Assembly (NCBI GenBank): GCA_040755005.1
Contig: JBFMBV010000001.1
Coordinates: 5,692-69,691 of the forward strand
DNA: 64,000 bases
Direction of reading: 5' to 3'
DNA from: Bacillota bacterium
GTDB taxonomy: Bacteria; Bacillota; Sulfobacillia; JBFMBV01
Below, piece by piece: positions 6,503-51,407 of this stretch (its first letter is position 1; every line of letters begins with the position of its first letter). Both the position numbers and the translations under genes were made by a program. The notes beneath the pieces are model-generated. The model did no database searches. It saw only the letters and a list, made by a program, of their open reading frames with translations, and had not been told where the DNA came from.

Positions 6503-6790
6503 GCTCCTACCTCCCCGGCGCCACGCAGGGCATCGCCCTGGGGCCTGATCGCTGACAGTATGCCCAGCACAGCTGCGGGTAAGCAGGCCGCGCGGCAGCG
6601 TCCTAAGTGGCTATTCACCGCGCTGGCGGGCGGTTCCTCCCAGCGAGACCGGTGGCGTCATCGACGGCGCCATGGAGCCAGTGGTCCTTCTCATTAGGCA
6701 TGCGGCAAGGAAAATGTTATACTACTCTCGTACGACACTCGTCTTCGGGAAGTAAGGATGACTGGCGGACAGGCCGGGAGGGAAGGAAGT

Positions 6791-8653
6791 TTGTGCGGGT
6801 TTGTCGGAGTATGGCATAAGAGCGGCGGAACCCGTTCCCGTACTCATTTTACCTCTATGACCAATACCCTGGCGCACCGGGGTCCCGATGACGAGCGTTA
6901 CGCTCACCTGGAGCATGTGGACCTGGGGTTTAGAAGGTTGAAGATCATCGACTTATCCGGCGGGTATCAGCCCATGTATAACGAAGACCAGAGCCTCTGC
7001 CTGGTCTTCAATGGGGAAATCTACAACTACCGGGAGCTGAGGGACGGGTTAAGACAACGCGGACACATTTTCGCCTCGAATGCTGACAGCGAGGTCATCC
7101 TGCACCTGTATGAGGAGTACGGTGAGGTCTGTGTCAACCGGCTGCGAGGCATGTTTGCCTTCTGCATATACGATCGTGCGGAGAACCGGCTGTTTGGCGC
7201 CCGGGATCGCTTTGGCATCAAACCGCTCTATTACCTCGAAACTGCCAACTCATTTGCCCTTGCTTCGGAGGCCAAGGCCCTGCTCGATGTTCCGGGGTAC
7301 AGCCCCATGGTTAACGAAGCGGCGATCCCTCACTATTTGACCTTTGAGTATGTTCCGGAGCCGGAAACAATGTTCAAGGGCATCTACAAGATTCCGCCCG
7401 GACATTCCTTTGTGTACAGCAGCGGGAAGCTGACCCTCTCGCGTTACTGGGAGGTCAACTTCTCACCCGTAGACAAACCCTTTGCCGAAGTTTTGGAAGA
7501 AACGCGACAGGTCATGCGCGAAGCGGTAAAACTGCATACCCAAAGCGATGTTCCCTTGGGGGCGTTCCTATCGGGAGGAATCGACTCAACCATAATCGTG
7601 GCGCTGCTCAGGGAACTTGGGCATGTGTCCACCTTTAGTGTAGGCTATGAGGAATCGGCTTACAGTGAGCTTTCCGAAGCGGCAGAAACCGCGCGCTATC
7701 TGGAGACCGAGCATGAAGAGTATGTGATTGAGCCGGATGAGTTCTGGGCACACCTCCCCCGGCTGATCCATCATTTCGACGAACCGGTGGCGGATCCGGC
7801 AGCGATCTCGCTCTACTTCGTAGCGCGGATGGCCAGAAAGAAGATAACCGTAACCCTGTCCGGAGAAGGCGCGGACGAGCTCTTCGGAGGATACGCGATT
7901 TACATGGAACCGCGCGCGCTCCAGCCCCTGAGTATGTTACCCCCGCCCATGTTGCAGGCCCTGGGGGCGGGCTCCCAACTCCTGCCGGGGTTCATTCCGG
8001 GGAAGAACTACCTGCGCCGGGCCTCTACTCCGTTAAGAAACCGCTTTTACGGAAACGCTCATATCTTCAACGAAGATGAGAAGCGGGCTCTGCTGAAGGA
8101 CAACCAGTTTGTGCCGGCAACGGCCGTAACCGGCCCCCTGTATGACAGAGCCGCCGCCTACGACGACGTGACCAAAATGCAGTATATCGACCTGCATACA
8201 TGGATGGTAGGGGATATCTTGGTCAAAGCGGACAAGATGACCATGGCCAATTCACTGGAGTTGAGGGTTCCCTTCCTGGATCACCACGTCTTTGAGTTTG
8301 CGTCCACTATACCTACGAAATACAAGATCCGCAAAGGCCTCACCAAGTACGTGCTGCGGCAGGCCTTTGCCGGTATTGTTCCCCCAGCTGCCGTTTCCCG
8401 TCCCAAGCGGGGTTTCCCGGTGCCCACCCGTGTGTGGCTCAGGGGACCGATGGGGAAGAAAGCGGAGGAACTCCTGATGGATCCATCGCTGGGGCAGTTC
8501 TTTAGCCCCGCGCCGGTGCGAAAGTACCTGAGCGAACATCGGCTGGGGAAAGCAGATCACAGCCGGAAGATCTGGAGCCTGGTCATTTTCACCCTGTGGT
8601 GGGAGTGTTTCTTCCCCGGTTCACTAGCATCATTGAGCGAAGCCTCCGGTTAA
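6791..8653 (+). CDS. asnB: asparagine synthetase, glutamine-hydrolysing
   Basis: TTG-Cys start (M-CGFVG N-terminal nucleophile) after GGGAGGGAAGGA RBS; SGGIDS PP-loop; about 55% GC versus about 68% flanks. Confidence 0.85.
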   Translation: MCGFVGVWHKSGGTRSRTHFTSMTNTLAHRGPDDERYAHLEHVDLGFRRLKIIDLSGGYQPMYNEDQSLCLVFNGEIYNYRELRDGLRQRGHIFASNADSEVILHLYEEYGEVCVNRLRGMFAFCIYDRAENRLFGARDRFGIKPLYYLETANSFALASEAKALLDVPGYSPMVNEAAIPHYLTFEYVPEPETMFKGIYKIPPGHSFVYSSGKLTLSRYWEVNFSPVDKPFAEVLEETRQVMREAVKLHTQSDVPLGAFLSGGIDSTIIVALLRELGHVSTFSVGYEESAYSELSEAAETARYLETEHEEYVIEPDEFWAHLPRLIHHFDEPVADPAAISLYFVARMARKKITVTLSGEGADELFGGYAIYMEPRALQPLSMLPPPMLQALGAGSQLLPGFIPGKNYLRRASTPLRNRFYGNAHIFNEDEKRALLKDNQFVPATAVTGPLYDRAAAYDDVTKMQYIDLHTWMVGDILVKADKMTMANSLELRVPFLDHHVFEFASTIPTKYKIRKGLTKYVLRQAFAGIVPPAAVSRPKRGFPVPTRVWLRGPMGKKAEELLMDPSLGQFFSPAPVRKYLSEHRLGKADHSRKIWSLVIFTLWWECFFPGSLASLSEASG

Positions 8654-14853: not shown

Positions 14854-15682
14854 ACTGGGGCTAGTCGGGGCAGGCGCCATGGCTGAAGCCCTGGTGGCTG
14901 GGGTCACTGCGGCAGGTCTCTATGGGCCGGACCGCATCGTGGTGACTAATCGTCGTAACCTTGCCCGGCGACGCGAACTGGCCTGCCAATATGGGATTTG
15001 TACCGCGGCCAGCTTGGAAGAGTTGTGCCTGACAGCGGACCTGCTGGTATTGGCAGTCAAGCCGGTCGATGCCGCCGAGGTCCTGGCCCGCCTGGCGAGG
15101 ACCATCACCGACAGGCACACGCTTGTGTCGGTGGTCGCAGGCCTCAGCCTGGCCGCGCTCCAATCTCAGCTGCCTGCTGGCATGACCATCATCCGGGCCA
15201 TGCCCAACACCTCCTGCGCCGTCAGTCAATCGGCGACGGCCCTGGCCTGGGGCGAGGGTGTGGGCGCAGGCATGCGCGCACAGGTGCTGGGCATGTTCAC
15301 TGCCATCGGCCAGGTCGTGGAACTGCCCGAACACCTCATCGATGCGGCCACCGGGCTGGCGGGGAGCGGTCCCGCTTACGTCTACTATCTAGTTGAGGCA
15401 CTGGTGGAGGCGGGGCGCCAGGCCGGATTACCCGGCGAGGTGGCCGAGTCCCTGGCCAGGCAGACCCTCTACGGCGCGGCAGTGATGCTGCAGCGGACCG
15501 GCGCTGACCCGGCCGCACTGCGGGCCAAGGTCACATCGCCCGGCGGCACCACCATGGCAGGCGTGGAAACCCTGGAACGGGCAGGGGTCAGGGGCGCGGT
15601 CAAGGCTGCGGTGAAGGCCGCAGCCAAGCGAGCCGGGGAACTGGGCAAGCCGACCACTGGCATGGCGTCAGGCACGGAGTGA
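14843..15682 (+). CDS. proC: pyrroline-5-carboxylate reductase
   Basis: GTG start VGGKLGLVGAGAMAEAL (Rossmann motif); overlaps the proA stop; P5CR C-terminal TSPGGTT motif. Confidence 0.85.
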   Translation: MGGKLGLVGAGAMAEALVAGVTAAGLYGPDRIVVTNRRNLARRRELACQYGICTAASLEELCLTADLLVLAVKPVDAAEVLARLARTITDRHTLVSVVAGLSLAALQSQLPAGMTIIRAMPNTSCAVSQSATALAWGEGVGAGMRAQVLGMFTAIGQVVELPEHLIDAATGLAGSGPAYVYYLVEALVEAGRQAGLPGEVAESLARQTLYGAAVMLQRTGADPAALRAKVTSPGGTTMAGVETLERAGVRGAVKAAVKAAAKRAGELGKPTTGMASGTE

Positions 15683-15765
15683 CCTGGTGTTTGCGGCGGC
15701 CGACACGCGGATCGCGTGGTCTTCGGTCAGGACCCGCTGGCGGCCGCCATCACTCTGGAGATACG

Positions 15766-15793
15766 AGTGAGGCCACCTAACGGTGGCCTCACT
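15766..15793. terminator. bidirectional GC hairpin between convergent proC and the anti-sigma gene
   Basis: agtgaggccacc-taac-ggtggcctcact, perfect 12-bp stem; no U-tract. Confidence 0.5.
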
Positions 15794-15839
15794 GTCGCAT
15801 GCCGCGTATGTCGATGGGTCGCCGCTATGGCCACGGACG

Positions 15840-16330
15840 TCAATCGTCGTCGGAGCCCTCGATGAGGTCGTCGAAATCCTCCAGCGTGGGGTCGGCCTTG
15901 ATGGCAGTCTCGATCTTAGCCAGGGCTTCTGCTTCGGTCAGCCCCGCCTCAATGAGGTCAGCCATCGCTGCGGTGATCGTGGTCAGTTCCTCTAGGGTTG
16001 GGTCTGCTTCCATGGCTGTCTTGAGCATTGCCAGCGCGGCTTCGGACTTGACACCAGCCTCCAGCAGGTCCACCATGGCTGCCGTAAAGGTAGTGATCTC
16101 TTCCAAGAGGAGTTCCCTGTCCGTACCTGCGGCCAGTTGCGCCTCCACCAGGGCCAGCACAGCCATGATGTCCTCGGCCGTTGCGCCGACGTCGTGTAGG
16201 TCAATCGTAGCCGCGACGATGGTGCTCAGCTCCTCGAGTTCGGGATCTGTCACCAAGGTGCCCTTCAGGATAGCCAACGCAGCTTCCTCAGTCATCCCGG
16301 CCTCGAGCATGTCCAGTAGCCCCGCCGCGA
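15840..16330 (-). repeat. in-frame degenerate tandem repeats (about 111 nt, about 37 aa) encoding the C-terminal domain of the anti-sigma protein
   Basis: Four protein units ending DPELEELS, (diverged), DPTLEELT and DPTLEDFD, each carrying a xEAALAxLK core; the antisense frame gives a Ser-rich shadow ORF. Confidence 0.5.
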
Positions 16331-17087
16331 TCGTGTCGAACTCGTCGCTGAACAGCTCAGGGTCGATGTCCAGCTCCGCTTGCAGTTCCAGCACCTTCAT
16401 GGCCAGCTCGGAACCAGCCTCTTCGACCAGATCAACATAGTCATCGGGCAAGATGCCAGCCTTACGTGCAGACTCAGCCAGCTCACCGGTGACTTCGACG
16501 CTCACGACCTTGACCGACAAGCCCTGCTCCTTGAGGTAGCCGTCCAGGGTCCCGCGCACTGTCTCCGTCAAGGCCGTGAGCGCTTTCTGGGGCAGCTTGT
16601 CCTCAATCGGGCTCAAGGCAATGACGATCCGACGCTGAGGATCTAACAGCCCGGCCTTGTGCAGCTCCTCCGCGATGAGGCGCAGCGCCTCATCTACCTT
16701 CTTGCCCTCGAGTTTCAGTCCTGCCAATAGGGCCTCGCCCTGAGCGTCCAGACCTTCCGCGTCCATGATCCTGTCTTTTCCGCTTACGGTCAGTCCGATC
16801 GCAGGGTTGACCTGCAAGGCCAGACTAGCTACGGCCCGAGGGGTGAAGAAAGCCATGTACCCTCCAACCACCAGAGCCACCACGGCAACCGCGGCAACGA
16901 GCTTCCCAACTTTCACTATCATCCCTCCGACAGTCGCTTTGTGGGTTGGGCGATGAACTTTGGCTTTGGCACAGTGCCCACAGGCAAGCAGGGTTCTTCT
17001 CAAGCGCTGCTGGTGTGCCGGCATGTGCACTTCGGGAAGCTGAAGATCCTCCAGCATTGCCTCCAGCTCTGTCCTAACCAACTTCAT
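15840..17087 (-). CDS. putative membrane anti-sigma factor with one TM and an acidic helical-repeat extracytoplasmic domain
   Basis: Immediately downstream of the ECF sigma gene; 55-aa cytoplasmic N-terminus, TM GGMIVKVGKLVAAVAVVALVVGGYMAFF, repeat domain; start ATG at 17087 (TTG at 17096 also possible). Confidence 0.6.
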   Translation of the reverse strand: MKLVRTELEAMLEDLQLPEVHMPAHQQRLRRTLLACGHCAKAKVHRPTHKATVGGMIVKVGKLVAAVAVVALVVGGYMAFFTPRAVASLALQVNPAIGLTVSGKDRIMDAEGLDAQGEALLAGLKLEGKKVDEALRLIAEELHKAGLLDPQRRIVIALSPIEDKLPQKALTALTETVRGTLDGYLKEQGLSVKVVSVEVTGELAESARKAGILPDDYVDLVEEAGSELAMKVLELQAELDIDPELFSDEFDTIAAGLLDMLEAGMTEEAALAILKGTLVTDPELEELSTIVAATIDLHDVGATAEDIMAVLALVEAQLAAGTDRELLLEEITTFTAAMVDLLEAGVKSEAALAMLKTAMEADPTLEELTTITAAMADLIEAGLTEAEALAKIETAIKADPTLEDFDDLIEGSDDD

Positions 17088-17142
17088 ATCGATCAACCCT
17101 CTGTTCCATTAAACTTCGCTCTGGGAAAAAGGTTGCAGCCTG

Positions 17143-17721
17143 TTAACTCCGCGCCTCCAGCGCAGTGCGCAGCCGAGCCAAACCACGATGTAGTAGCGAC
17201 TTGACGGTGCCTTCTGGTTTCCGGAGAATCTCGGCTATCTCTTTGATGGTCTTGTCAGCAAAGAAACGTAAGCCGATCACTTCCTGGTAGATCACAGGCA
17301 GTTGGCGAATGTGCTGCAGACAAGTCAGAAATTGCTGGTGCCGCGTCAACGTCTCCTGCGCCGCGATCAGCTCGGCTTCCACCTCAGTAGCGGATACTGG
17401 TTCTAGCCCTTGGGTCTCGTGCAGGTGCTCCAGGGAAACTGGCGTGTACTTTCCTCTGCGCACATAGGTGGCCAGTTCATTGCCGGCGATGCGGTAGAGC
17501 CAAGCGCCAAAGGAACTGCCCCGCCACTCAAAGCGTCCAATTGCAGACAGCGCTTTGACGAAGGTCTCGGCCGTGATGTCCTTGGCAGCTTCGATGTTGC
17601 CGGTTCGGCGTACAACATAGTTGAGTATCGCCGGGTAGTACCGGTCATAGAGCTGAGCGAAAGCCTCGGGGCTATGCCGGGCGTGGGCAAGCAGTTCCTG
17701 CTCAGTGTCATGGGTGCTCAT
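17143..17721 (-). CDS. ECF-type RNA polymerase sigma factor
   Basis: Sigma-70 region 2 (FAQLYDRYYPAILNYVVRRTG) and region 4 (IKEIAEILRKPEGTVKSLLHRG); start trimmed to MSTHDTEQ with AGGAGC RBS. Confidence 0.8.
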   Translation of the reverse strand: MSTHDTEQELLAHARHSPEAFAQLYDRYYPAILNYVVRRTGNIEAAKDITAETFVKALSAIGRFEWRGSSFGAWLYRIAGNELATYVRRGKYTPVSLEHLHETQGLEPVSATEVEAELIAAQETLTRHQQFLTCLQHIRQLPVIYQEVIGLRFFADKTIKEIAEILRKPEGTVKSLLHRGLARLRTALEARS

Positions 17722-17955
17722 CGCCGTTGCTCCTAACCTCTGTGCGTAACTCATCCCTGCAAGACGCTGCGAGGCCACTGATTCGTTACGCGAGCGGCGA
17801 TTTCCTCTGCCTCTCTCAAGCTTTCCGCATCGTTCGAGCTGCGCTAAGGCTCGAGTGGTCGACGGCGCCGATGCCGGGCGTACAACCCGGCGGGCAGCCC
17901 GTGGGGGCTGCCCGCTGCAAGTGTACAATCATCGCTGACCAGGCACCCTTACCTT

Positions 17956-19179
17956 TCACCGAGGGTCGGCCACAGACCCCATGAACAGCAGGGTGCCGGT
18001 CTTATCGTCACGGATGGCGAAGAAGAACGGACGGTTCACGGTCAGCTCAGCTATGCGCGGCATGGCGGTGACTCGTATCGTGACCGCGGTCACCCCGGCA
18101 GCCTCAGTGCCCGCCTCATTGACATCCACATAGGTCTTGTGCTTGACCTCGCCGATGTACGGTCTTGCCGGGGGTGGACACATGCCGCTGAAGTCCGCCC
18201 TGCCCGCCTCGAAGGCGATGCCCATGCCCAGGGCCGTCAGTGCCCCCGTCAGTTCCTGGTCGTACTCCAGCCTGAACTTAGGCAGGGCCAGCCGCACTTC
18301 GCTGTTGGAGAAGGCCGCCATCCACTCCTGCCAGGCCTCAGGGGTAAGCCTGGCATGGAAGCTGTCCAGGCTGGAGGTCTCGCTGGGTAGGAACACATAC
18401 ATGCTGACCCGGCCGCCGCCGTAAGGCAGGCCCACTGCCTGGAAACCGTCGCCCTCAAGGTAGCGGTACTGGCCGGTGCGGTGCATCAGCAGGTGCTGCT
18501 TCACTGAGCCGTCGGCCACAGTGAAGGGCCCCTCCCGCGTGGCGGCGGGGTCGAATCTGTCCGTCCAGTTGCCCTTGAAGTAGACGGCGTTGACGAGCAC
18601 CATCACGTCCATCGGGTCCAGCTGGTTGATGATGCGGTCAATCTTGCCGTTGGTCTGGCGTTTGACCCAGCTGTTGATCGTCAGGAGTGCCTGCGGATCC
18701 GCGAAGTCCAGCGCGGTCACCTCGGCCTGATAGAAGCGCTCGTTACGCTCCAGGAAGTCGGGGAGGAACGTCATGTTCCGCTCAGCCCAGATGGAGTTGG
18801 CTACCTTGAGCTGCAGCTTGGGATCGGGGTTGTTGAGGATGGTGAGCAGCTCGGCATTGGCGGCGTTTAACTCCTCCAGAGTAAGCCCGTCGAGGCCCAG
18901 CGCCTTGGCCATGGCAGCCTGGGTCGTGCCCGCAGCCCCGTTGTAGGTCATGGCCAGGGCCATGCCTATGCTAACCGGGGAAATGAACAGGTTAGGCCGG
19001 GGCTCAATGGCCAGCAGCTCCCGATAGAGCGTCAAGGCGAAGCCGAGGTTGGCCTCGGCCAGCCTGGGGTCGATCGCCTCGGCCGGCGCCGCCAACGCCT
19101 TGGCCCCGATCGTACAGCCGGCAGCTGACAGTGCCAGCAACACTGCCAGAGCGGAAGTCAACAGTTTGGTTGCGCGCAT
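17956..19179 (-). CDS. serpin-family protease inhibitor, lipoprotein
   Basis: Signal peptide with lipobox LSAAGC; NAVYFKGNW serpin motif; inhibitory-type hinge EAGTEAAGVTAV; AGGAGG RBS. Confidence 0.85.
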   Translation of the reverse strand: MRATKLLTSALAVLLALSAAGCTIGAKALAAPAEAIDPRLAEANLGFALTLYRELLAIEPRPNLFISPVSIGMALAMTYNGAAGTTQAAMAKALGLDGLTLEELNAANAELLTILNNPDPKLQLKVANSIWAERNMTFLPDFLERNERFYQAEVTALDFADPQALLTINSWVKRQTNGKIDRIINQLDPMDVMVLVNAVYFKGNWTDRFDPAATREGPFTVADGSVKQHLLMHRTGQYRYLEGDGFQAVGLPYGGGRVSMYVFLPSETSSLDSFHARLTPEAWQEWMAAFSNSEVRLALPKFRLEYDQELTGALTALGMGIAFEAGRADFSGMCPPPARPYIGEVKHKTYVDVNEAGTEAAGVTAVTIRVTAMPRIAELTVNRPFFFAIRDDKTGTLLFMGSVADPR

Positions 19180-19270
19180 GGCTCTACCTCCTGACGCTCC
19201 CCGAGGTCAGACTCGGACGCAGTCAACGGTTACGACGTCACGACAGCCTTATGGTTCCCCACCTCAGGGA

Positions 19271-19295
19271 AAAACGCCCGGCAGGCGGGCGTTTT
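19271..19295 (-). terminator. intrinsic terminator downstream of ftsH
   Basis: AAAACGCCCGCCTGCCGGGCGTTTTT on the minus strand: 7-bp GC stem plus U-tract. Confidence 0.55.
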
Positions 19296-19320
19296 ACATA
19301 CGTGCAGGGCGTACTGGCTG

Positions 19321-21117
19321 TCAAGCGCAGGTGGCAGCCAAGAGATCCTCCAGTTGCGGGCCTTCCAGCGTCTCATGTTCCAGCAGGGCGCTGGCGATCC
19401 GATCCAGGAGTCCCCTGCACTCGACCAGGATGGCCTTAGCCCTGTCGTTGCACGCATGGATCAAGTCGTGGACTTCCCGGTCAATCACAGCCGCGACTTC
19501 CTCGCTGTAATTGCGGATCTTGGTGATGTCCCGGCCGAGGAACACCTGCTGCTCCTCACCGGTGCCGAAGGTCAGGGGCCCGAGCTTCTCGGACATGCCG
19601 TATTCGGTGACCATCCGCCTCACCAGCTTGGATGCCTTGTCCAAGTCATCATGGGCGCCGGTGCTGGCTTCGCCGAATATCATCTCTTCGGCAGCGCGGC
19701 CGGCCAAGGTGGCAGTCACCCGTTCCAGGATCTCCGAGCGGGTAATGAGGTAGCGGTCCTCGATCGGTAGCTGCAGCACATAGCCCAGGGCCGATCCCCT
19801 CGGCACCACTGACACCTTGTGCACCGGGTCAGTGTTGGGCAGCTTCCTAGCCACCAAGGCATGGGCCGCTTCATGATAGGCGACGGTGCGCTTCTCTTTC
19901 TCGCTGATGATCCGGCTCTTGCGCTCCGGCCCAGCGATGGTCCTGTCGATGGCCGCCTCAAGCTCAACCATGCCGATCCGGTCTTTCCGGCGCCTGACCG
20001 TGAGCAGGGCCGCCTCGTTAACGAGGCTCTCGATATCCGCGCCGGTAAACCCAGGGATGCGCTTGGCGAGGACGTTCAGGTCCACGTCAGTGTCCAGGGG
20101 CTTCCCCCGTACATGCACTTTGAGGATGGCCTCCCTGCCGGTGAGGTCTGGCCTGTCAATTACGACCTGCCGGTCGAAGCGGCCTGGCCGCAGCAGGGCG
20201 GGATCGAGCACGTCAGGCCGGTTGGTGGCGGCCATGATGATGACGCCCTCGTTCACCCCGAACCCATCCATCTCGACGAGCAGCTGGTTGAGGGTTTGCT
20301 CGCGTTCGTCGTGGCCGCCGCCGTAGCCGGCGCCCCGCTGGCGCCCCACAGCGTCGATCTCATCAATGAACACGATGCAGGGCTGATGCTTCTTCGCGGT
20401 CTCGAACAGGTCTCGGACGCGGGAGGCGCCAACTCCAACGAACATTTCGACGAAATCAGAGCCGCTGATGGTGAAGAAGGGCACACCCGCCTCTCCGGAT
20501 ACGGCCCGCGCCAGGTGGGTCTTGCCTGTGCCTGGCGCGCCCACGAGGAGGATTCCCTTGGGGATACGCGCCCCGAGCTCGAGGTACTTGTTGGGGTGCC
20601 GGAGGAAATCGACGACTTCCTCCATCTCCTCCTTGACTTCATCGATGCCGGCCACGTCCGCGAAGGTGACCACCCGGCGGTCCGGCTGGTGCAGCTTGGC
20701 GCGGCTGCGGGAAAACTGCACGGCCCGGTTTCCCCCTGCCTGCATCTGCTGCATGAAATAGAGCAGCAGCCCTCCGAGGATTAGCAGGGGGATGATGCTG
20801 CCCAGCAGCCCTATCCACCAGGCTGGCTCAGCGGGCAGGTCCATGGTCACGACGACACTGTGCGCTTGGAGCCGGTCCAGAAGGGTGCCATCTACGAGCA
20901 CCACGGTCTTGAACTGGGTCCCGTCGGCGAGTTTGCCAGTGAGCACTCGGTCCACGATGCGGACGGAGGCAACCTTACCGGCCTCTAGCTGCTGGATGAA
21001 CTCGGTATAGCCAAGCTCCTGAGGCTTGGACTCAGGCCTCGGCAGCGAACTGGCCAGGAACAGGGCCAGCGCCAGCGCAGCAACGTAGAACATGGTGGTA
21101 CGTAGATGCCGGTTCAC
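19321..21117 (-). CDS. ftsH: ATP-dependent zinc metalloprotease FtsH
   Basis: TM N-terminus, AAA module [15 protein letters not shown] zinc site; 598 aa. Confidence 0.95.
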
Positions 21118-26918: not shown

Positions 26919-27023
26919 GGTTCATGGCTATGCTGCCCACCGTCCCCATAACCCGCGCCTCAGAGACTGCCTCGCAGGATGTGCCGCCCGCAGCAACGAA
27001 ACTGCCTCAGGCACAGGGGGGTG

Positions 27024-28004
27024 ATGCCAGCTGTGATCGACAAGCCCGTAGTTGCCGTCGTGGAGAAGGGTGTGAACTACATCTTTCATCTCCTGGCTGT
27101 CGGTAAGGTTGGCTACGACAGCCGCTATGGCGACCGATATGCCCGGTCCGTTGCTGCCTCAGACCTAGGCAGCCTTAGGCGCCATGCTAACCTGCTGGTC
27201 TTCGGCGATGGCAGGGGCTTCGGGCCGCTGACCGCCCTGCTGGTGTTCATACCAGCCTTCCTCAACCTAGATACAGCCGACAAACTCGACCGATACTGCC
27301 ACGGGCTCAAGGCCGCCATCGGCCTGGGAGAGCCCGAGCGCTTCTGCAGTCTTTACGACACTGCGTTAGCCGAGCTAGGAGACTGGATAGAGGACTGTCT
27401 CGATCGAACCCACCAGGCCATCAAACATGCCCATGCTGATTGCCGTGAACCGGCCCTGGAACTCTGCGATGTGGTTCACCGGAGCTTCCTGGTCTATGAC
27501 GCGCAAGTTTGGACCGAGCAGCTGCCTGCGCTTACGGCCAAAGCGCTGGAACTGAATGCGCTGTGCGCGAAGGCCGACATTATCCGACGTTGGGAAGAGG
27601 GCACTGGGCTCCAGTACAGACGCCCTGCCTTCGCCGTATCACTCTGCAGCGCCAACGCAAACGGCCCAGATGCCAACGATCTTGGCTATGACAGGAACGT
27701 GCACTACAGCGGACGCACGCCAACCGACATCTTGAGCTTCGCCTGCCACGAGGTGGGAGTCCGCCTGATCGCGCCTGTCCGTAGGGGACTGCTGCGCGAG
27801 TTGACTCCTGCTCAAGCGCAGTCTGCGTACTGGGTGAACGAGACCCTCGCTGAGTATCTCAGGTGTTCGACCTTTGGCTGCGCTCCGGCCTTTGCCTACG
27901 ACCACACATTGTACAACCTGTTCCAGCAAATGCATAGGTTCTCCCCTGAGGCGTCAGTCGCTGACCTGTTCCGTGCAGGCGTGGAGCATCTGGGCCGGCG
28001 TTAG
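27024..28004 (+). CDS. hypothetical protein with no domain I recognise; opposite-strand insertion between yabQ and yabP
   Basis: 327 aa from MPAVIDKPVV with GGGGGG RBS; clean long ORF; about 58-60% GC; Cys/His-rich (CHGLK, HAHADC, CHEVGVRL). Confidence 0.5.
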   Translation: MPAVIDKPVVAVVEKGVNYIFHLLAVGKVGYDSRYGDRYARSVAASDLGSLRRHANLLVFGDGRGFGPLTALLVFIPAFLNLDTADKLDRYCHGLKAAIGLGEPERFCSLYDTALAELGDWIEDCLDRTHQAIKHAHADCREPALELCDVVHRSFLVYDAQVWTEQLPALTAKALELNALCAKADIIRRWEEGTGLQYRRPAFAVSLCSANANGPDANDLGYDRNVHYSGRTPTDILSFACHEVGVRLIAPVRRGLLRELTPAQAQSAYWVNETLAEYLRCSTFGCAPAFAYDHTLYNLFQQMHRFSPEASVADLFRAGVEHLGRR

Positions 28005-40928: not shown

Positions 40929-41170
40929 GGATGGTGCCCCCTTCCAGGACTCAGTCTAGATGGTTCCCCCGGCAGGGCAAACCATGCGTAGTGTATTCCG
41001 CCCGTAGGGGGGCAAGTCCTGCCGCTGATCTACCAGGTCAGTGTGTCCACTGACCCGAAGGTGCTGAGAGTGGACGTCTCCGAAGAACCGGACCTGAGCG
41101 GCGATGGGGAGCAGTGGCTGCTCCAGGCCGTCCTGGGCACGCCATCAGCACCGGTTTCGGGCCTTGGGGC

Positions 41171-42454: not shown

Positions 42455-42520
42455 CCCGCTTTGACCTACCCGAACAATATGGCTCCTGCCGCCGATTTCA
42501 TTCAGGTTTTCGGCGGCCCC

Positions 42521-43303
42521 TTACCGATTCCTGCTCTGCATCCTCCCCTTCAGGACAGCGTCGGCGAGTTCGTAGTCAGCCGGTTTGTCCACATCGATGC
42601 CGATGTCGGCGTCAGCAGTCACGATCACCTTGCCTGTGACCCCCAGGAGCTTGCACACCCTCCGTTCGAGCTCCGCCAAGGTCAGGCTGCCCAAGAGGAG
42701 GCCGATCAGCGTCCCCCAACCGACGATGGCCGCTTGGCGGGCCGGGCTCTTGCGGGCCTCGGCGAAGCGGGCGCCCAGATCGCGACAGGGTCCGACCACA
42801 TGGGGGTGGATGACGAAAATGTTGCCGCCCGTGACCTTCCCCTCTCGGAATTTGAGATAGGTCCGTTTGGTGCCGGGATAGGCCGCTTCTATGTGCTGCC
42901 TGAACACGACCGGATAGAAGACCTCTCCCCCTGCCGCCAGGCAGGTGTCCACGAAGGCGTCATAGCCTGCGGCGGTGACCAGGGGCGTATCGCCGGCGGT
43001 CAGGAGTATCGGCCCATCTCCGGCCTGCCGCTGGGCTTCGTCGACACCGAGGGCGATATTGTCCATCATGGAGTCGCTGGCCTCCACCAGGGTCAAGCCC
43101 TTGCCTGTGACCTTGCCAGCGCTGTCCGCTGGCCCTACTACGATTATCCCGTCAACCACCCTTGCCCCGGACAGGGCGTCTACCACCCACTGCAGCATGG
43201 GCCTGTCGGCCAGTGGGATCATGGCTTCCCACGCTTCAGCGCTCACGGTCGCCAGCCTGCCGGCGTTCCGGCGGCCGGCCAGGACCACCGCTCTAAGTCC
43301 CAT
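42521..43303 (-). CDS. MobA-like nucleotidyltransferase family protein
   Basis: AVVLAGRRNAGRL N-terminal NTP-transferase motif; overlaps the ispE stop by 11 nt. Confidence 0.55.
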   Translation of the reverse strand: MGLRAVVLAGRRNAGRLATVSAEAWEAMIPLADRPMLQWVVDALSGARVVDGIIVVGPADSAGKVTGKGLTLVEASDSMMDNIALGVDEAQRQAGDGPILLTAGDTPLVTAAGYDAFVDTCLAAGGEVFYPVVFRQHIEAAYPGTKRTYLKFREGKVTGGNIFVIHPHVVGPCRDLGARFAEARKSPARQAAIVGWGTLIGLLLGSLTLAELERRVCKLLGVTGKVIVTADADIGIDVDKPADYELADAVLKGRMQSRNR

Positions 43304-44189: not shown

Positions 44190-44260
44190 CGCTACTACCG
44201 ACACGGGAGCGCACCCCCCCGGTCGGCCTGAATTCGCCGCCGCCCGCTCCAATCCTGCTC

Positions 44261-46894
44261 TCAGCGCGGACCTCCGACCGCAGCCTCCAGACCCCCGGCC
44301 GCCCTGGCAAGCCCCTTGACTGCGGCCGCCACAGGCCCGTAGTGCTCGTAGAACACCAGCACGATGTCCCCCGGCTGCGCCCGGCCGACCGCTGTCCGCA
44401 CAGCCTCAACTTCGTCCAGGACCATGTCCATGGACTCCACCATGACGCCGCCTTGGGCGCCGGCCCTTAGCAGGGCTGCCGTCTCGCCGGGCTGCCGCCC
44501 CCGCAGGTCTCTGTCTTCCCTGATCACCAGATGGTGAAAGCTGTTGCCGGCGACGCGGCCAAGCTCGTACAGGGCCGCATCGGCCCGGTCACCCGGGGCC
44601 CCGAGCACCCCGATCAGCCTGCCGGGACCCAGCCGGCGGGCCGTGTTGACCACAGCGCGCACGGCTGACGGATTGTGGCCGTAGTCGACGACCACTGTAC
44701 AAGCGCCTACGGCGAACAGCGTGAACCGCCCTGGGTTGTCGTCCTCATTTCCCTGAAAGGACCGCAGCACCGCCCCCATGGCTGTCTCGGCGAGGCCAAG
44801 GCCGACCCCGGCACCCACCGCAGCCAGCACATTCTCCACGTTGTGGGCGGCCCGGCCCCCCAGGGTGAGGGGGAAATCCGCCACCGGACCGACTGACCGT
44901 TCGCCGCGGGCGTCCCGGACGAGCACTTGTCCGCGGCGGACGTAGACAGCCGTCCCGCCGGCGTCGACATGGCGCCTGACGGACAGGTTGTCAGGGACCA
45001 TGCTGAACAGGATCCGCCTGCCCCGGGCCCGGGCCGCAACCGCCATGACCTGCGGGTCATCGGCGTTAAGGACGCTGGCCCCTGCGGGCTTGACTACTTC
45101 GGTGATCAGGCACTTGACCGCAGCCATGTCCTCCATGGTCTCGATGCCATCGCACTCGAGGTGATCAGCGGACACGTTGGTGAGCACGGCCACGTCGCAC
45201 CGGTCAAACCCCAGGCCGCCTCTGATGATGCCGCCCCTCGCCGTCTCGAGCACCGCGGCCTCCACACCTGGGTCCATCAGCAGCCGTCCGGCGCTGGCTG
45301 GACCCGCCATATCTCCTGCGGCGATGAGCCGCCCCTGCAGATAGATCCCATCGGTTGTGGCCCGGGCGGTGCGCAGGCCGGTCGCCTGGAGTAGACGGTC
45401 GATGAGCCTCACCACCGTTGTCTTGCCGTTGGTGCCGGTCACCGCGATCACGGGAATGCAGCCGTCGGCGCCTCCGGGGAACAGGTAGTCGACGATGTCC
45501 GCCGCCACGTCCCTGGGCTGTCCCTCGCAGGGGTGCAGATGCATGCGCAGGCCTGGGGCGGCGTTGACTTCAATGATCACCGCCTCCTCCCCGGCTGGGA
45601 CGGAGATGTCGGGGGCCACTAGGTCCACTCCAGCCACGTCCAGACCGAGGGCGGCGGCTGCCGCCACTGCCAGCTGGGCTTGAGATGGATGGACCTCAGC
45701 GGTAACGTCCCTCGCGGTGCCTCCAGTGGAAAGGTTAGCATTGGGCCGAAGCACGACGAGCCTGCCTGCCTCAGGTACGCTGTCGACGGTCAGGCCTTGG
45801 CGCGCCAAGGTGAGCCGGACGATCTCATCCATGGACACCCTGGTGAGGGGGCGTTCGTGGTCCAGACCCCGCCTGGGGTCGCTGTTCAGAGCCGCGATCA
45901 ACTCAGTGACCGTGTTGTTCCCGTCACCGGTGAGGGTCGCGGGCAGGCGCTCCGCCGCCGCCGCCAGCCGCCCGTCGATCACCAACAGGCGGAAGTGCCT
46001 GCCTGGGATGTACCGCTCGACGATGATCCGCGGACTGAACTGCCGTGCCACCGCGAAGGCCTGCAAGACCTCGTCGTCAGTCCGCAGATCCAAGGCCACG
46101 CCCTTGCCCTGGTTCGCGTCTACAGGCTTGAGCACTACCGGTGGCCCCAGGTCAGCGACGAGGGCCAAGGCCTCGCGTTCGCTGAGGGCCACTCCGCCGG
46201 GAGGGACCGGTAGCCCATGCCGCCCCAACACGTCCTTGGTCTCCGCCTTGTCACAGGCGATGTCCGCAGCCAGGCAACTGGTGGCATCGGTCAGGGAGGC
46301 CCTCACCAGCCGCCGCCGGTGACCCTGCCCCAGCTGGACGAGGCTGTCGCTGGACAGCCGCATGACTGGTATGCCCCGCCTCCTGGCGGCGGCGGCGATG
46401 GCGCTGGTGGTCGGCCCGAGGTCGGACAGCCTGGCCCGCCCCAGCGCCTGCAGGCAGCTGCCGATGTCCACAAGCTCGCCAGCCAGCACCCGCTGGACAA
46501 CATCCACGGCCAGTGGGGCGGCGGCCAGGCCGCAACGGCTTCCGTCACAGCCGCATTCATAGACGACCCTGAAGACCGACCCGTCGCCCACCCGGCGCGT
46601 CTTGCCATAGGTCACTGGCACCCCGGCCAGATTCAACAGCTCAAGGGCAACGTGTTCGACGGCGTGCCCCAGTAGCGTCCCTTCGGTCAGGCGCTCCAGG
46701 AAGCCCCCGGGGTAGCCCCTGGAGCAGTGGTGTCCGGCCAGGCCGGGTAGAGCGGCGACGAGCCTGTCAGGGAAAGACGGGAGACTGTCCGTGTATGTGT
46801 CCACATGCTCCAGCAGGTCGACCAGCAGTTCAATGACGGGTCGGTGACAGTGGATATTCGGGCCGTCGTGGGCACGGACGGCGAGGATGTGCAT
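44261..46894 (-). CDS. cphA: cyanophycin synthetase
   Basis: N-domain HCSRGYPGGFLERLTEGTLLGHAVEHVALELL; ATP-grasp; C-terminal Mur-ligase IAVTGTNGKTT; start MHILAVR with AGGAGG RBS. Confidence 0.9.
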   Translation of the reverse strand: MHILAVRAHDGPNIHCHRPVIELLVDLLEHVDTYTDSLPSFPDRLVAALPGLAGHHCSRGYPGGFLERLTEGTLLGHAVEHVALELLNLAGVPVTYGKTRRVGDGSVFRVVYECGCDGSRCGLAAAPLAVDVVQRVLAGELVDIGSCLQALGRARLSDLGPTTSAIAAAARRRGIPVMRLSSDSLVQLGQGHRRRLVRASLTDATSCLAADIACDKAETKDVLGRHGLPVPPGGVALSEREALALVADLGPPVVLKPVDANQGKGVALDLRTDDEVLQAFAVARQFSPRIIVERYIPGRHFRLLVIDGRLAAAAERLPATLTGDGNNTVTELIAALNSDPRRGLDHERPLTRVSMDEIVRLTLARQGLTVDSVPEAGRLVVLRPNANLSTGGTARDVTAEVHPSQAQLAVAAAAALGLDVAGVDLVAPDISVPAGEEAVIIEVNAAPGLRMHLHPCEGQPRDVAADIVDYLFPGGADGCIPVIAVTGTNGKTTVVRLIDRLLQATGLRTARATTDGIYLQGRLIAAGDMAGPASAGRLLMDPGVEAAVLETARGGIIRGGLGFDRCDVAVLTNVSADHLECDGIETMEDMAAVKCLITEVVKPAGASVLNADDPQVMAVAARARGRRILFSMVPDNLSVRRHVDAGGTAVYVRRGQVLVRDARGERSVGPVADFPLTLGGRAAHNVENVLAAVGAGVGLGLAETAMGAVLRSFQGNEDDNPGRFTLFAVGACTVVVDYGHNPSAVRAVVNTARRLGPGRLIGVLGAPGDRADAALYELGRVAGNSFHHLVIREDRDLRGRQPGETAALLRAGAQGGVMVESMDMVLDEVEAVRTAVGRAQPGDIVLVFYEHYGPVAAAVKGLARAAGGLEAAVGGPR

Positions 46895-46925
46895 TGCCGC
46901 GTGGTCCTCCTTTGACACCGCGGCG

Positions 46926-47792
46926 TTAGCCTTTCCCTGCCCATTTGGGCTTATGCCCGTCCCGATTTGTCCCATCGCGCGGCTGGATGATGTCGCGATT
47001 GACCAGGTCAAAACCATAGCCCGCCGGCAGGACATGCAGGGTGGCGCAGGAGATCGCCAAGGGCTCGTCGGGCGACGAGGCCGAGGCGTTGGTGTGTTCC
47101 ACAGTGCGCCCGTCCAGCACGGTCACGGTCTGTGAACCGATGACCCGAAAGCGTAAGCCCGCTTCGACCACCAGCGCGGTGTCCTCGTCGATGCCGACTG
47201 CAAGCACCGAAGGGTTCTGGGCCACCGCCGCCAACAGCCTTCCGATGCGGCCTCTCTGCGCGAAATGCTGATCGATCACGATGCCTTCCACGAAACCCAT
47301 GCCCGGGGCCATGCTCACCGTGCATCGCTTTGGCCCCTCATCGTCGTCACCGGCCACGATCATCGTCGCGCTCATCACGGAGGCGCCCGCGCTTGTGCCG
47401 GCGATGACCGCCCCTGCCGTGTACAGGCGGTGCAGCGCCTCGTCGGCCCGGGTCCCGCCGATGATGCTGGTGATACGCAACTGGTCGCCGCCGGTGAAGA
47501 ACACCCCGCTTAGGCCCATCAAGGCAGCTTCCATACTAGCTGCGTCCGCCGCCGCCCGCGACTGAAAGCCTAAGACAGTCACAGCGGCAGCGCCAAGGCG
47601 CAGAAAAGCGGTGCGGTAGGTCTCCCCGGCCCCCTTGGCGTCCCCAGTGGCTGCGGCGATCACACCCAGCCGCGCCCTGGCGCCCCCGGCCAGGGAGACG
47701 AACTCCCGTAACACGGCGCAGTCGCCTGTCTTGTCCTCAGCGCCACCGATGACCATCAGCCGCCCGCGCTGCTCCCGGCCCACAGCATGCAC
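46926..47792 (-). CDS. cphB: cyanophycinase (peptidase S51)
   Basis: MVIGGAEDK, FFTGGDQLRITS, catalytic Ser in GTSAGASV. Confidence 0.85.
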   Translation of the reverse strand: MHAVGREQRGRLMVIGGAEDKTGDCAVLREFVSLAGGARARLGVIAAATGDAKGAGETYRTAFLRLGAAAVTVLGFQSRAAADAASMEAALMGLSGVFFTGGDQLRITSIIGGTRADEALHRLYTAGAVIAGTSAGASVMSATMIVAGDDDEGPKRCTVSMAPGMGFVEGIVIDQHFAQRGRIGRLLAAVAQNPSVLAVGIDEDTALVVEAGLRFRVIGSQTVTVLDGRTVEHTNASASSPDEPLAISCATLHVLPAGYGFDLVNRDIIQPRDGTNRDGHKPKWAGKG

Positions 47793-51240: not shown

Positions 51241-51407
51241 GATGTTGCACCCTTTCTACGGAGGCACTGACTTATCCTGTTTACCAGTTCATGGCAGGGA
51301 AGTACCCGCCCGCACGGCGCTTTGGTGTATCCGGTCAGTCTAGGAAGGACTTTCCTGTATTGGCTACTAAGTACTCCTGCTGCAACCACAAGGGAGGTAG
51401 GGGAGAT

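Follow-up and report, generated by a model that had tools for sequence, protein, structure and literature searches.

How a sigma factor of the extracytoplasmic function (ECF) class could be held in check by a membrane partner with an unfamiliar ectodomain, and what would release it, is the question raised by a gene pair in a 64-kb stretch of a Bacillota contig (hereafter the window; G+C content 65%). The pair lies on the minus strand and consists of an ECF sigma gene followed by a gene for a 415-residue protein that ends in acidic helical repeats. A first-pass annotation had read the second gene as an anti-sigma factor with a short cytoplasmic N-terminus, one transmembrane helix and four repeats placed directly after it. 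Our analysis locates a 128-residue SEAL domain and a degenerate fifth repeat unit between the helix and those repeats, and we consider it probable that the pair is a regulated-intramembrane-proteolysis switch, gated like RsgI by autoproteolysis, through which a canonical ECF sigma factor is controlled, and that it carries a new sensor or stalk module. The features of the pair are:

17143-17721, minus: ECF sigma gene, 192 amino acids (aa), ATG start (MSTHDT), ribosome-binding site (RBS) AGGAG at 17734-17730
15840-17087, minus: probable anti-sigma gene, 415 aa, ATG start (MKLVRT), 55 nucleotides (nt) past the sigma stop codon; from the open reading frame (ORF) and its translation
16980-17087, minus: conserved cytoplasmic N-terminal segment, putatively sigma-binding, aa 1-36; from invariant residues
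16836-16904, minus: single transmembrane helix, aa 62-84; from hydropathy
16452-16835, minus: juxtamembrane SEAL / RsgI_M domain, aa 85-212 (128 aa); from Pfam PF23750
16803-16808, minus: Asn94-Pro95 codons, predicted autocleavage site; from invariance and alignment with RsgI
15876-16451, minus: five acidic two-helix repeat units, aa 213-404; from z-scores against shuffled sequences and an AlphaFold2 model
15843-15875, minus: capping helix at the C-terminus with a short acidic tail, aa 405-415 (FDDLIEGSDDD); from the model, in which the helix covers aa 405-414

The sigma factor and its partner gene

Sigma70_r2 (2e-16) and Sigma70_r4_2 (5e-13) are the sole sigma domains that Pfam identifies in the 192-residue product, with no region 3 and no sigma-1.1, and the protein passes the general NCBIfam model for ECF sigma factors, TIGR02937, with 98 bits (cut-off 43). 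The top specific NCBIfam model is the BldN-like TIGR02952, which scores 117 bits and stays under its cut-off of 206; BldN is assigned to group ECF121 (PMC7826278). Because a canonical region 4 is present, whereas SigI-type factors are without canonical sigma-4 and carry a sigma-I-C domain instead (PMC7826278), the protein, as judged by its domain content, is a canonical ECF (group 4) sigma factor and not a SigI-type factor.

The order of the two genes is conserved. At 23 related loci, taken from genomes as well as metagenomes, a sigma gene whose product is 48-69% identical lies directly upstream of a homologue of the repeat protein, and at five further loci sigma homologues (50-62% identity) are followed by a different SEAL protein, which makes the sigma-then-partner order fixed in at least 28 other loci. 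A co-encoded cognate anti-sigma factor is one mark of ECF sigma factors, and with the partner 55 nt downstream and the neighborhood kept this widely, we infer that the 415-residue protein is probably the cognate single-pass anti-sigma factor, which would bind the sigma factor on the cytoplasmic side.

The SEAL domain

Pfam PF23750 (RsgI_M, equivalent to SEAL) matches residues 87-217 of the partner with E = 3.1e-18. In the PDB, a profile built from 20 homologues picks out RsgI periplasmic domains from C. thermocellum (RsgI1, RsgI2, RsgI6 and RsgI9) and B. subtilis (entries 8her, 8u9o, 8t9n, 8hdj, 8hep and 8heq). Chain B in 8her, 8u9o, 8hep, 8heq and 8hdj, the cleaved C-terminal part, starts at a proline that aligns with Pro95. 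Both Asn94 and Pro95 are invariant in the 20 homologues. In the AlphaFold model, where the ectodomain has a predicted local distance difference test score (pLDDT) of ~90, the two residues sit in a beta-turn of three residues that links strands 85-92 and 96-102, as at the cleavage site of RsgI proteins (PMC10328401, PMC10556640), and Foldseek aligns the model with B. subtilis RsgI (8t9n_A) at a template-modelling (TM) score of 0.80 and E = 2e-5.

According to two studies of RsgI proteins (PMC10328401, PMC10556640), autocleavage at the Asn-Pro turn has been demonstrated experimentally, the fragments are kept together by a shared sheet, and the cleavage is needed for RseP/RasP-dependent release of the sigma factor. 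By analogy, autocleavage is predicted between Asn94 and Pro95 of the window protein. The well-characterized RsgI/SEAL autoproteolytic domain fixes the likely mechanism.

The cytoplasmic segment and membrane topology

The 61 residues that precede the transmembrane helix are basic (net charge +5) and the ectodomain is acidic (net charge -48). Hydropathy windows above 1.6 are confined to aa 51-87, and the AlphaFold2 model places the helix there at aa 64-78; the short cytoplasmic N-terminus and single transmembrane helix of the first-pass annotation thus stand. We found 67 homologues of the protein. The 20-homologue alignment shows invariant Leu15, Leu17, Pro18, Pro23, Leu29 and Leu34 within the motif L..L.LPEV.MPAHQ.RLR..LL (consensus form L.NL.LPEV.MPAHQRRLRETLL). 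The same motif recurs alongside unrelated ectodomains in the partners of more distant members of the clade: a 680-aa beta-propeller protein and proteins of 153 and 253 aa. The protein at locus L014, in turn, has an identical layout of N-terminus, transmembrane helix and SEAL domain with a different C-terminal module. Since the synteny, the invariant N-terminal motif, its sharing across unrelated ectodomains and the module swap at L014 all point the same way, we propose that a conserved segment for sigma binding sits on a modular chassis, and the conservation pattern points to aa 1-36 as the putative sigma-binding element. The claim that an ECF sigma/anti-sigma pair is encoded here is therefore retained.

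This segment differs from the known anti-sigma domains that we looked for. Neither zf-HC2 nor RsgI_N has a Pfam match in the protein (none for RsgI_N, PF12791, at E <= 0.1), and a profile search of the PDB at E <= 1 matched the SEAL part alone, with no counterpart of RsgI_N. A zinc-binding or class I anti-sigma signature (zf-HC2 or HxxxCxxC) is likewise absent; the C36-G-H-C39 of the window protein is not conserved in its homologues. The protein is best classed as one that works like RsgI and is not an RsgI-family member, because it has neither the RsgI_N domain nor a SigI partner.

The NCBI entry for the same protein (P0002, AB1492_00095) is a 358-aa "hypothetical protein" that begins at residue 58. 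This start omits the conserved cytoplasmic segment (16914-17087, aa 1-58) and hides the anti-sigma nature of the protein, and the public annotation is corrected here.

The acidic helical repeats

The boundaries of the repeat units are: U0, aa 213-249; U1, 250-286; U2, 287-330; U3, 331-367; and U4, 368-404. Compared with shuffled sequences, U1, U3 and U4 (37 aa each) reach z = 13-17, U2 (44 aa, with an additional short helix) z ~4, and the degenerate first unit, U0, z 2-3. The four degenerate repeats over about 150 residues described at first match U1-U4, which span 155 aa, and U0 adds a fifth unit; the EGSDDD terminus was read correctly. Including the tail, the region (aa 213-415, 203 aa) has a net charge of -45 and an isoelectric point of 4.05. 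The AlphaFold2 model of aa 211-415 has a pLDDT of 93.9, a predicted TM score of 0.87 and 13 helices, and no tandem repeat was detected at the DNA level in the repeat region.

The module was considered unusual from the start, and the searches agree. Pfam searches with the repeat domain and with consensus units, to E <= 10, gave only sub-threshold matches (T2SSF, ISP_coupler, Acetyltransf_11); Foldseek against the PDB gave designed helical-repeat proteins only (best E = 0.015), with no match to a natural fold. A repeat-domain profile found just 73 matches among 1.84 billion representative proteins, and 101 of the 124 proteins collected contain a SEAL domain, many of the remainder being short or truncated, or short secreted proteins with signal peptides. 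As judged by these searches, the acidic helical-repeat module is previously undescribed and almost confined to the SEAL-repeat protein family.

Among orthologues the repeat domain is 79 to 322 aa long, the lengths differing by roughly 37, 44 or 81 residues at a time, and the number of units varies from ~2 to 8. Beyond the repeats comes a tail, whose median length in 49 homologues is 73 aa; it is acidic, proline-rich and of low complexity (20% Glu, 14% Pro, 13% Asp). This natural variation in repeat number and tail presence provides a ready series for the mechanical-dissociation model of SEAL signaling.

Many of the carriers among loci L001-L017 are metagenome-assembled genomes (MAGs): BA1A, NSHQ14, CROMO Dethiobacter and Clostridium, Candidatus Hakubella and NPL-UPA2. 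These names point to serpentinizing, hyperalkaline sites (Samail for BA1A and NSHQ14), and the strong acidity of the ectodomain may have a bearing on life in such a habitat. Two SEAL-repeat homologues are on contigs binned as methanogens (L005, a Methanobacterium sp. MAG, and P0046, a Methanobacteriaceae archaeon), which is probably a binning artefact or horizontal transfer.

Promoter motifs

Two promoter candidates of different types were found at the pair, neither of which is the one first proposed:

17781-17808, minus: sigma-H-type promoter candidate AGAGGAAAT-N12-AACGAAT upstream of the sigma gene; from a consensus scan
17109-17137, minus: ECF-type promoter candidate TGCAACC-TTTTT...-AGTTTAA in the sigma/anti-sigma spacer; from a conserved motif and a matrix
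17761-17789, minus: first-pass candidate GTAACGAA ... CGTCTT, which is not supported by its spacing, chance frequency or conservation
6613-6638 (minus), 26976-27001 (plus), 40995-41020 (minus), 42508-42532 (minus), 44232-44256 (minus) and 51253-51278 (minus): six other sigma-H-like motifs

Sigma-H promoters have a spacer of about 11-12 nt. The consensus of their elements, as given in PMC8510167, is RNAGGAWWW / RNNGAATWW. All 64 kb were scanned with the pattern AGGAWWW-N11-12-RNNGAAT, in which the spacer length is not part of the cited consensus. The scan yielded a sole strict match, AGAGGAAAT-N12-AACGAATCA at 17808-17779 (0.05 expected), and the site is conserved in the closest relative, L042. 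A relaxed motif (AGGA-N14-15-RNNGAAW) has seven matches against 1.73 expected, a number reached by no shuffle, and all seven, the sigma site included, are intergenic and oriented toward the downstream gene. The genes behind the other six are those for an M16 peptidase, a 326-aa product of no assigned family, glmU, purR-spoVG, ispE and a G5/3D YabE-like protein. In seven of 13 lineage groups the sigma gene has a related motif, CAGG-N17-CG[AT]A, in its upstream region (best of 2000 shuffles, three groups). GCAGG-N17-CGAA was considered as an ECF autoregulatory promoter and dropped: it fits the sigma-H consensus and also precedes ispE, purR-spoVG, glmU and others.

The first-pass candidate was an ECF-like promoter at 17760-17790, with a 17-nt spacing. 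As measured, GTAACGAA lies at 17789-17782 and CGTCTT at 17766-17761, which leaves a gap of 15 nt, or 18 nt from AAC to CGTC. The motif is absent before ten orthologous sigma genes, its -10 element reads CGCTTT in L042, and its supposed -35 element, GTAACGAA, makes up the -10 element of the sigma-H-type candidate and is better read as such. A search of the window for TAAC-N16-19-CGTC gave two copies against 2.8 expected.

The spacer between the two genes holds the second candidate. At least 12 related loci have the motif [TC]GCAACC-(T-rich)-CGTTA (AAC-N16-CGT; TGCAACC-N15-CGTT) conserved in this spacer, and motifs of this type also precede other secreted-protein genes and SEAL-repeat paralogues without a cytoplasmic segment. 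A matrix from 19 spacer-type sites has its top window match at 17140-17106 (18.1 bits; runner-up, 6.1 bits), and nothing beyond this site stands out when the window is scanned with it for a regulon. An Rfam scan of 15600-19500 gave sub-threshold chance matches only.

Several observations at related loci and elsewhere in the window accompany these motifs. A second SEAL protein without a cytoplasmic segment lies beside the pair in L010 (2512-3699), L043 (1640-2905), L049, L051 and L053; the paralogues in L043 and L051 have their own TGCAAC-N16-CGTT promoter, and that of L053 has a PepSY domain. In three Dethiobacter-like loci from Dethiobacter and Clostridium sp. MAGs, L007 (minus, 8463), L008 (minus, 8224) and L013 (minus, 8289), TGCAACC...CGTTAT stands upstream of an opposite-strand gene ~1.3 kb past the anti-sigma gene; it encodes a ~315-aa secreted protein, with C-terminal repeats that by eye resemble copper-amine-oxidase-N, and is a candidate regulon member. 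In L001 the 27-nt sigma-H-like motif recurs almost unchanged past the anti-sigma terminator, at 7536-7562, followed by a 101-aa ORF with no homologue in the other loci or in the window. In the window, the 326-aa ORF (27024-28004, plus) has no Pfam match, a G+C content at third codon positions (GC3) of 0.70, below that of its neighbors, and a sigma-H-like motif and G-rich RBS upstream; no homologue was present in any of the related loci compared. Directly upstream of ispE is a cyanophycin-synthetase-like gene (44261-47035, minus) with Cyanophycin_syn, Mur ligase and ATP-grasp domains.

Proposed mechanism

Based on these observations, and modelled on the RsgI proteins of B. subtilis and C. thermocellum, we propose a probable course of events in which sigma binding, autocleavage and intramembrane proteolysis are taken from the analogy: (i) the SEAL domain would cleave itself constitutively between Asn94 and Pro95, the halves being held by their common beta-sheet; (ii) an envelope cue acting on the repeats, or in most homologues on the repeats and the long acidic, proline-rich disordered tail, would pull or destabilize the C-terminal fragment; (iii) the residual extracytoplasmic stub of ~10 residues would become a substrate for a site-2 protease (RasP/RseP); and (iv) the sigma factor would be freed. 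The operon would be transcribed from the sigma-H-type promoter upstream of the sigma gene, and active sigma factor would use the ECF-type promoter in the spacer to make more anti-sigma factor, a negative feedback. The acidic helical-repeat module would be the signal-receiving element.

Several points weigh against this proposal. The tail of the window protein is 6 aa, without the long disordered extension of most homologues, and B. subtilis RsgI needs its disordered tail for signaling (PMC9732909). Besides being short, the cytoplasmic segment has no match among known anti-sigma domain models, and its predicted structure is of low confidence (pLDDT 45-72). Both the window and L042 have AGTT in place of CGTT as the -10 element of the spacer promoter, and it is possible that the sigma-H-type motif (AGGA...GAAT) reflects the specificity of the ECF sigma factor itself.

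As to what the repeats do, the idea that they are a new extracytoplasmic sensor or stalk gating SEAL mechanotransduction, for example as a length-tuned wall ruler or a responder to cations or alkalinity in the serpentinizing, hyperalkaline settings of many carriers, is speculative, and we hold it to be on the unlikely side. If true, force sensing of the SEA/SEAL type would reach beyond SigI to canonical ECF sigma factors.

The serpin neighbor and alternative explanations

Upstream of the sigma gene lies a gene for a protease inhibitor, with two further features around it:

17956-19179, minus: serpin gene; from Pfam Serpin
19234-19258, minus: GGAAC-N16-CGTC motif, generic ECF-like, in the ftsH-serpin intergenic region, 52 nt before the serpin start codon
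17890-17915, minus: GC-rich hairpin past the serpin stop codon, with no U-tract; from folding

The match to PF00079 (E = 1e-118) covers profile positions 2-370 of 370, a full-length serpin fold, and a plausible lipobox, LSAAGC, gives the protein a lipoprotein-type signal, in line with its first description as a serpin lipoprotein. It is not divergent from the pair, as had been stated: the serpin, sigma and 415-aa reading frames are on one strand and transcribed in that order, within the wider arrangement spoIIE-tilS-ftsH-serpin-sigma-anti-sigma, which converges on proCAB. Folding of 17870-17960 gives -47.1 kcal/mol (z = -3.1), and the terminator scan makes no call there.

One alternative makes the serpin part of a protease-sensing circuit: the ectodomain would serve as bait for foreign proteases, its degradation would free the SEAL stub, the sigma factor would become active and the adjacent serpin would be induced. 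Inhibitor genes do occur beside three lineages of the sigma clade, namely the serpin of the window and L042, that of L044 and L047, and a Kazal protein in L046. Prokaryotic serpins are rare, and the repeated adjacency of serpins to this clade is therefore unlikely to be chance. The ECF-like motif upstream of the serpin also fits; GGAAC-N16-CGTC has three matches in the window against 1.25 expected, and the serpin copy is identical in L042. Measured against the family promoter matrix, however, this copy scores only -6.8 bits (rank 51). The serpin adjoins the pair only here and in L042, a 91%-identical relative; no serpin or other inhibitor gene is present in the 23 other repeat-protein loci, and none is listed in the five other SEAL loci. 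The serpins of L044 and L047 are 34-37% identical to that of the window, and the window serpin has a host-like GC3 of 0.84, within the 0.81-0.85 of the flanking genes, versus 0.64 for the sigma and 0.72 for the anti-sigma gene. We regard the protease-sensing circuit as improbable, and a functional link between the sigma clade and protease inhibitors as possible but tenuous.

The loci with other inhibitors are arranged as follows. In L044 (3710-6564) and L047 (4616-8564) a related sigma gene (~51-55% identity) is followed by a beta-propeller partner with the shared N-terminal motif and then by the serpin; in L046 (3596-5943) a related sigma gene (again ~51-55% identity) is followed by a small partner and then by a DUF5667-Kazal protein. 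The lower GC3 of the pair in the window (15840-17928) may reflect its later acquisition from a lower-GC Bacillota lineage.

The first-pass model fares somewhat worse, and we judge it quite improbable as a whole. It took the repeats, right after the transmembrane helix, as the sensor of a conventional anti-sigma factor, had the sigma factor autoregulate from GTAACGAA-N-CGTCTT, and placed the serpin in the regulon or made it the signal source. In its favor, both the pair and the repeats are genuine, promoters of the AAC...CGT type are used by the sigma clade, and the search for further promoter copies did find GGAAC-N16-CGTC before the serpin. The intervening SEAL domain, the spacing, chance frequency and poor conservation of the proposed promoter and its overlap with the sigma-H-type -10 element speak against it, as do the serpin's restriction to a single close relative and the poor matrix score of the serpin motif, which leave its place in the regulon unsupported.

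Least probable of all, at a very low level, is that the 415-residue protein is an envelope protein merely co-transcribed with a sigma factor that is controlled otherwise: SEAL-repeat paralogues without a cytoplasmic segment (the second gene of L010, and L024) and stand-alone secreted repeat proteins exist and the N-terminus resembles no modelled anti-sigma domain, but the invariant N-terminal motif tracks the sigma clade across differing ectodomains, the gene order is fixed and the architecture parallels RsgI.

Comparison with known systems

The RsgI-like switch that we favor shares with B. subtilis RsgI/SigI the single transmembrane helix, the juxtamembrane SEAL domain and the conserved autocleavage turn, and most homologues, though hardly the window protein, also share the C-terminal acidic, proline-rich disordered tail. 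Constitutive autocleavage, regulated dissociation and cleavage by RasP would be expected as in that system. It differs from the B. subtilis system in that RsgI_N is missing on the cytoplasmic side, that an ECF sigma factor with sigma-4 takes the place of SigI with sigma-I-C, and that a folded helical-repeat module stands between SEAL and tail. The C. thermocellum RsgI1-9/SigI1-8 systems likewise have an Asn-Pro autocleavage motif in the periplasmic domain followed by a modular C-terminal sensor; their sensors are carbohydrate-binding or glycoside-hydrolase-like, whereas here there is an acidic helical solenoid, and the sigma family differs too.

Like RsiW/SigW, RsiV/SigV and RseA/RpoE, the locus combines an ECF sigma factor with a co-transcribed single-pass anti-sigma factor for which site-2 intramembrane proteolysis would be expected. 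The site-1 cut in those systems is made by a separate regulated protease, whereas enzyme-independent self-cleavage is predicted here, and the zinc-binding or class I signature of classical ECF anti-sigma factors is missing. The geometry of the repeats, a solenoid of two-helix units of ~33-44 residues, recalls designed helical repeat proteins and the TALE-like BurrH, but the likeness is geometric only (Foldseek E >= 0.015, TM <= 0.47), with no sequence relationship.

A further parallel is with SEAL-PepSY and other SEAL proteins (Brogan et al. 2023), in which a SEAL chassis carries swappable C-terminal modules; the SEAL-PepSY paralogue of L053 stands beside a related sigma gene. The accessible part of that survey (PMC10556640) counts seven domains appended to RsgI-like anti-sigma factors. 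In the accessible parts of the literature, SEAL autoproteolysis is described so far for SigI/RsgI systems, and anti-sigma factors "similar to RsgI" are mentioned with canonical ECF coupling undiscussed; our literature search, with the same limit on the sources, returned no paper in which a SEAL anti-sigma factor is paired with an ECF sigma factor. The locus and its relatives indicate that one self-cleaving SEAL chassis serves an entire clade of ordinary ECF sigma factors, which it would bind by a different and very short cytoplasmic segment, and that it bears interchangeable sensor modules, one of them the acidic helical repeat described here.

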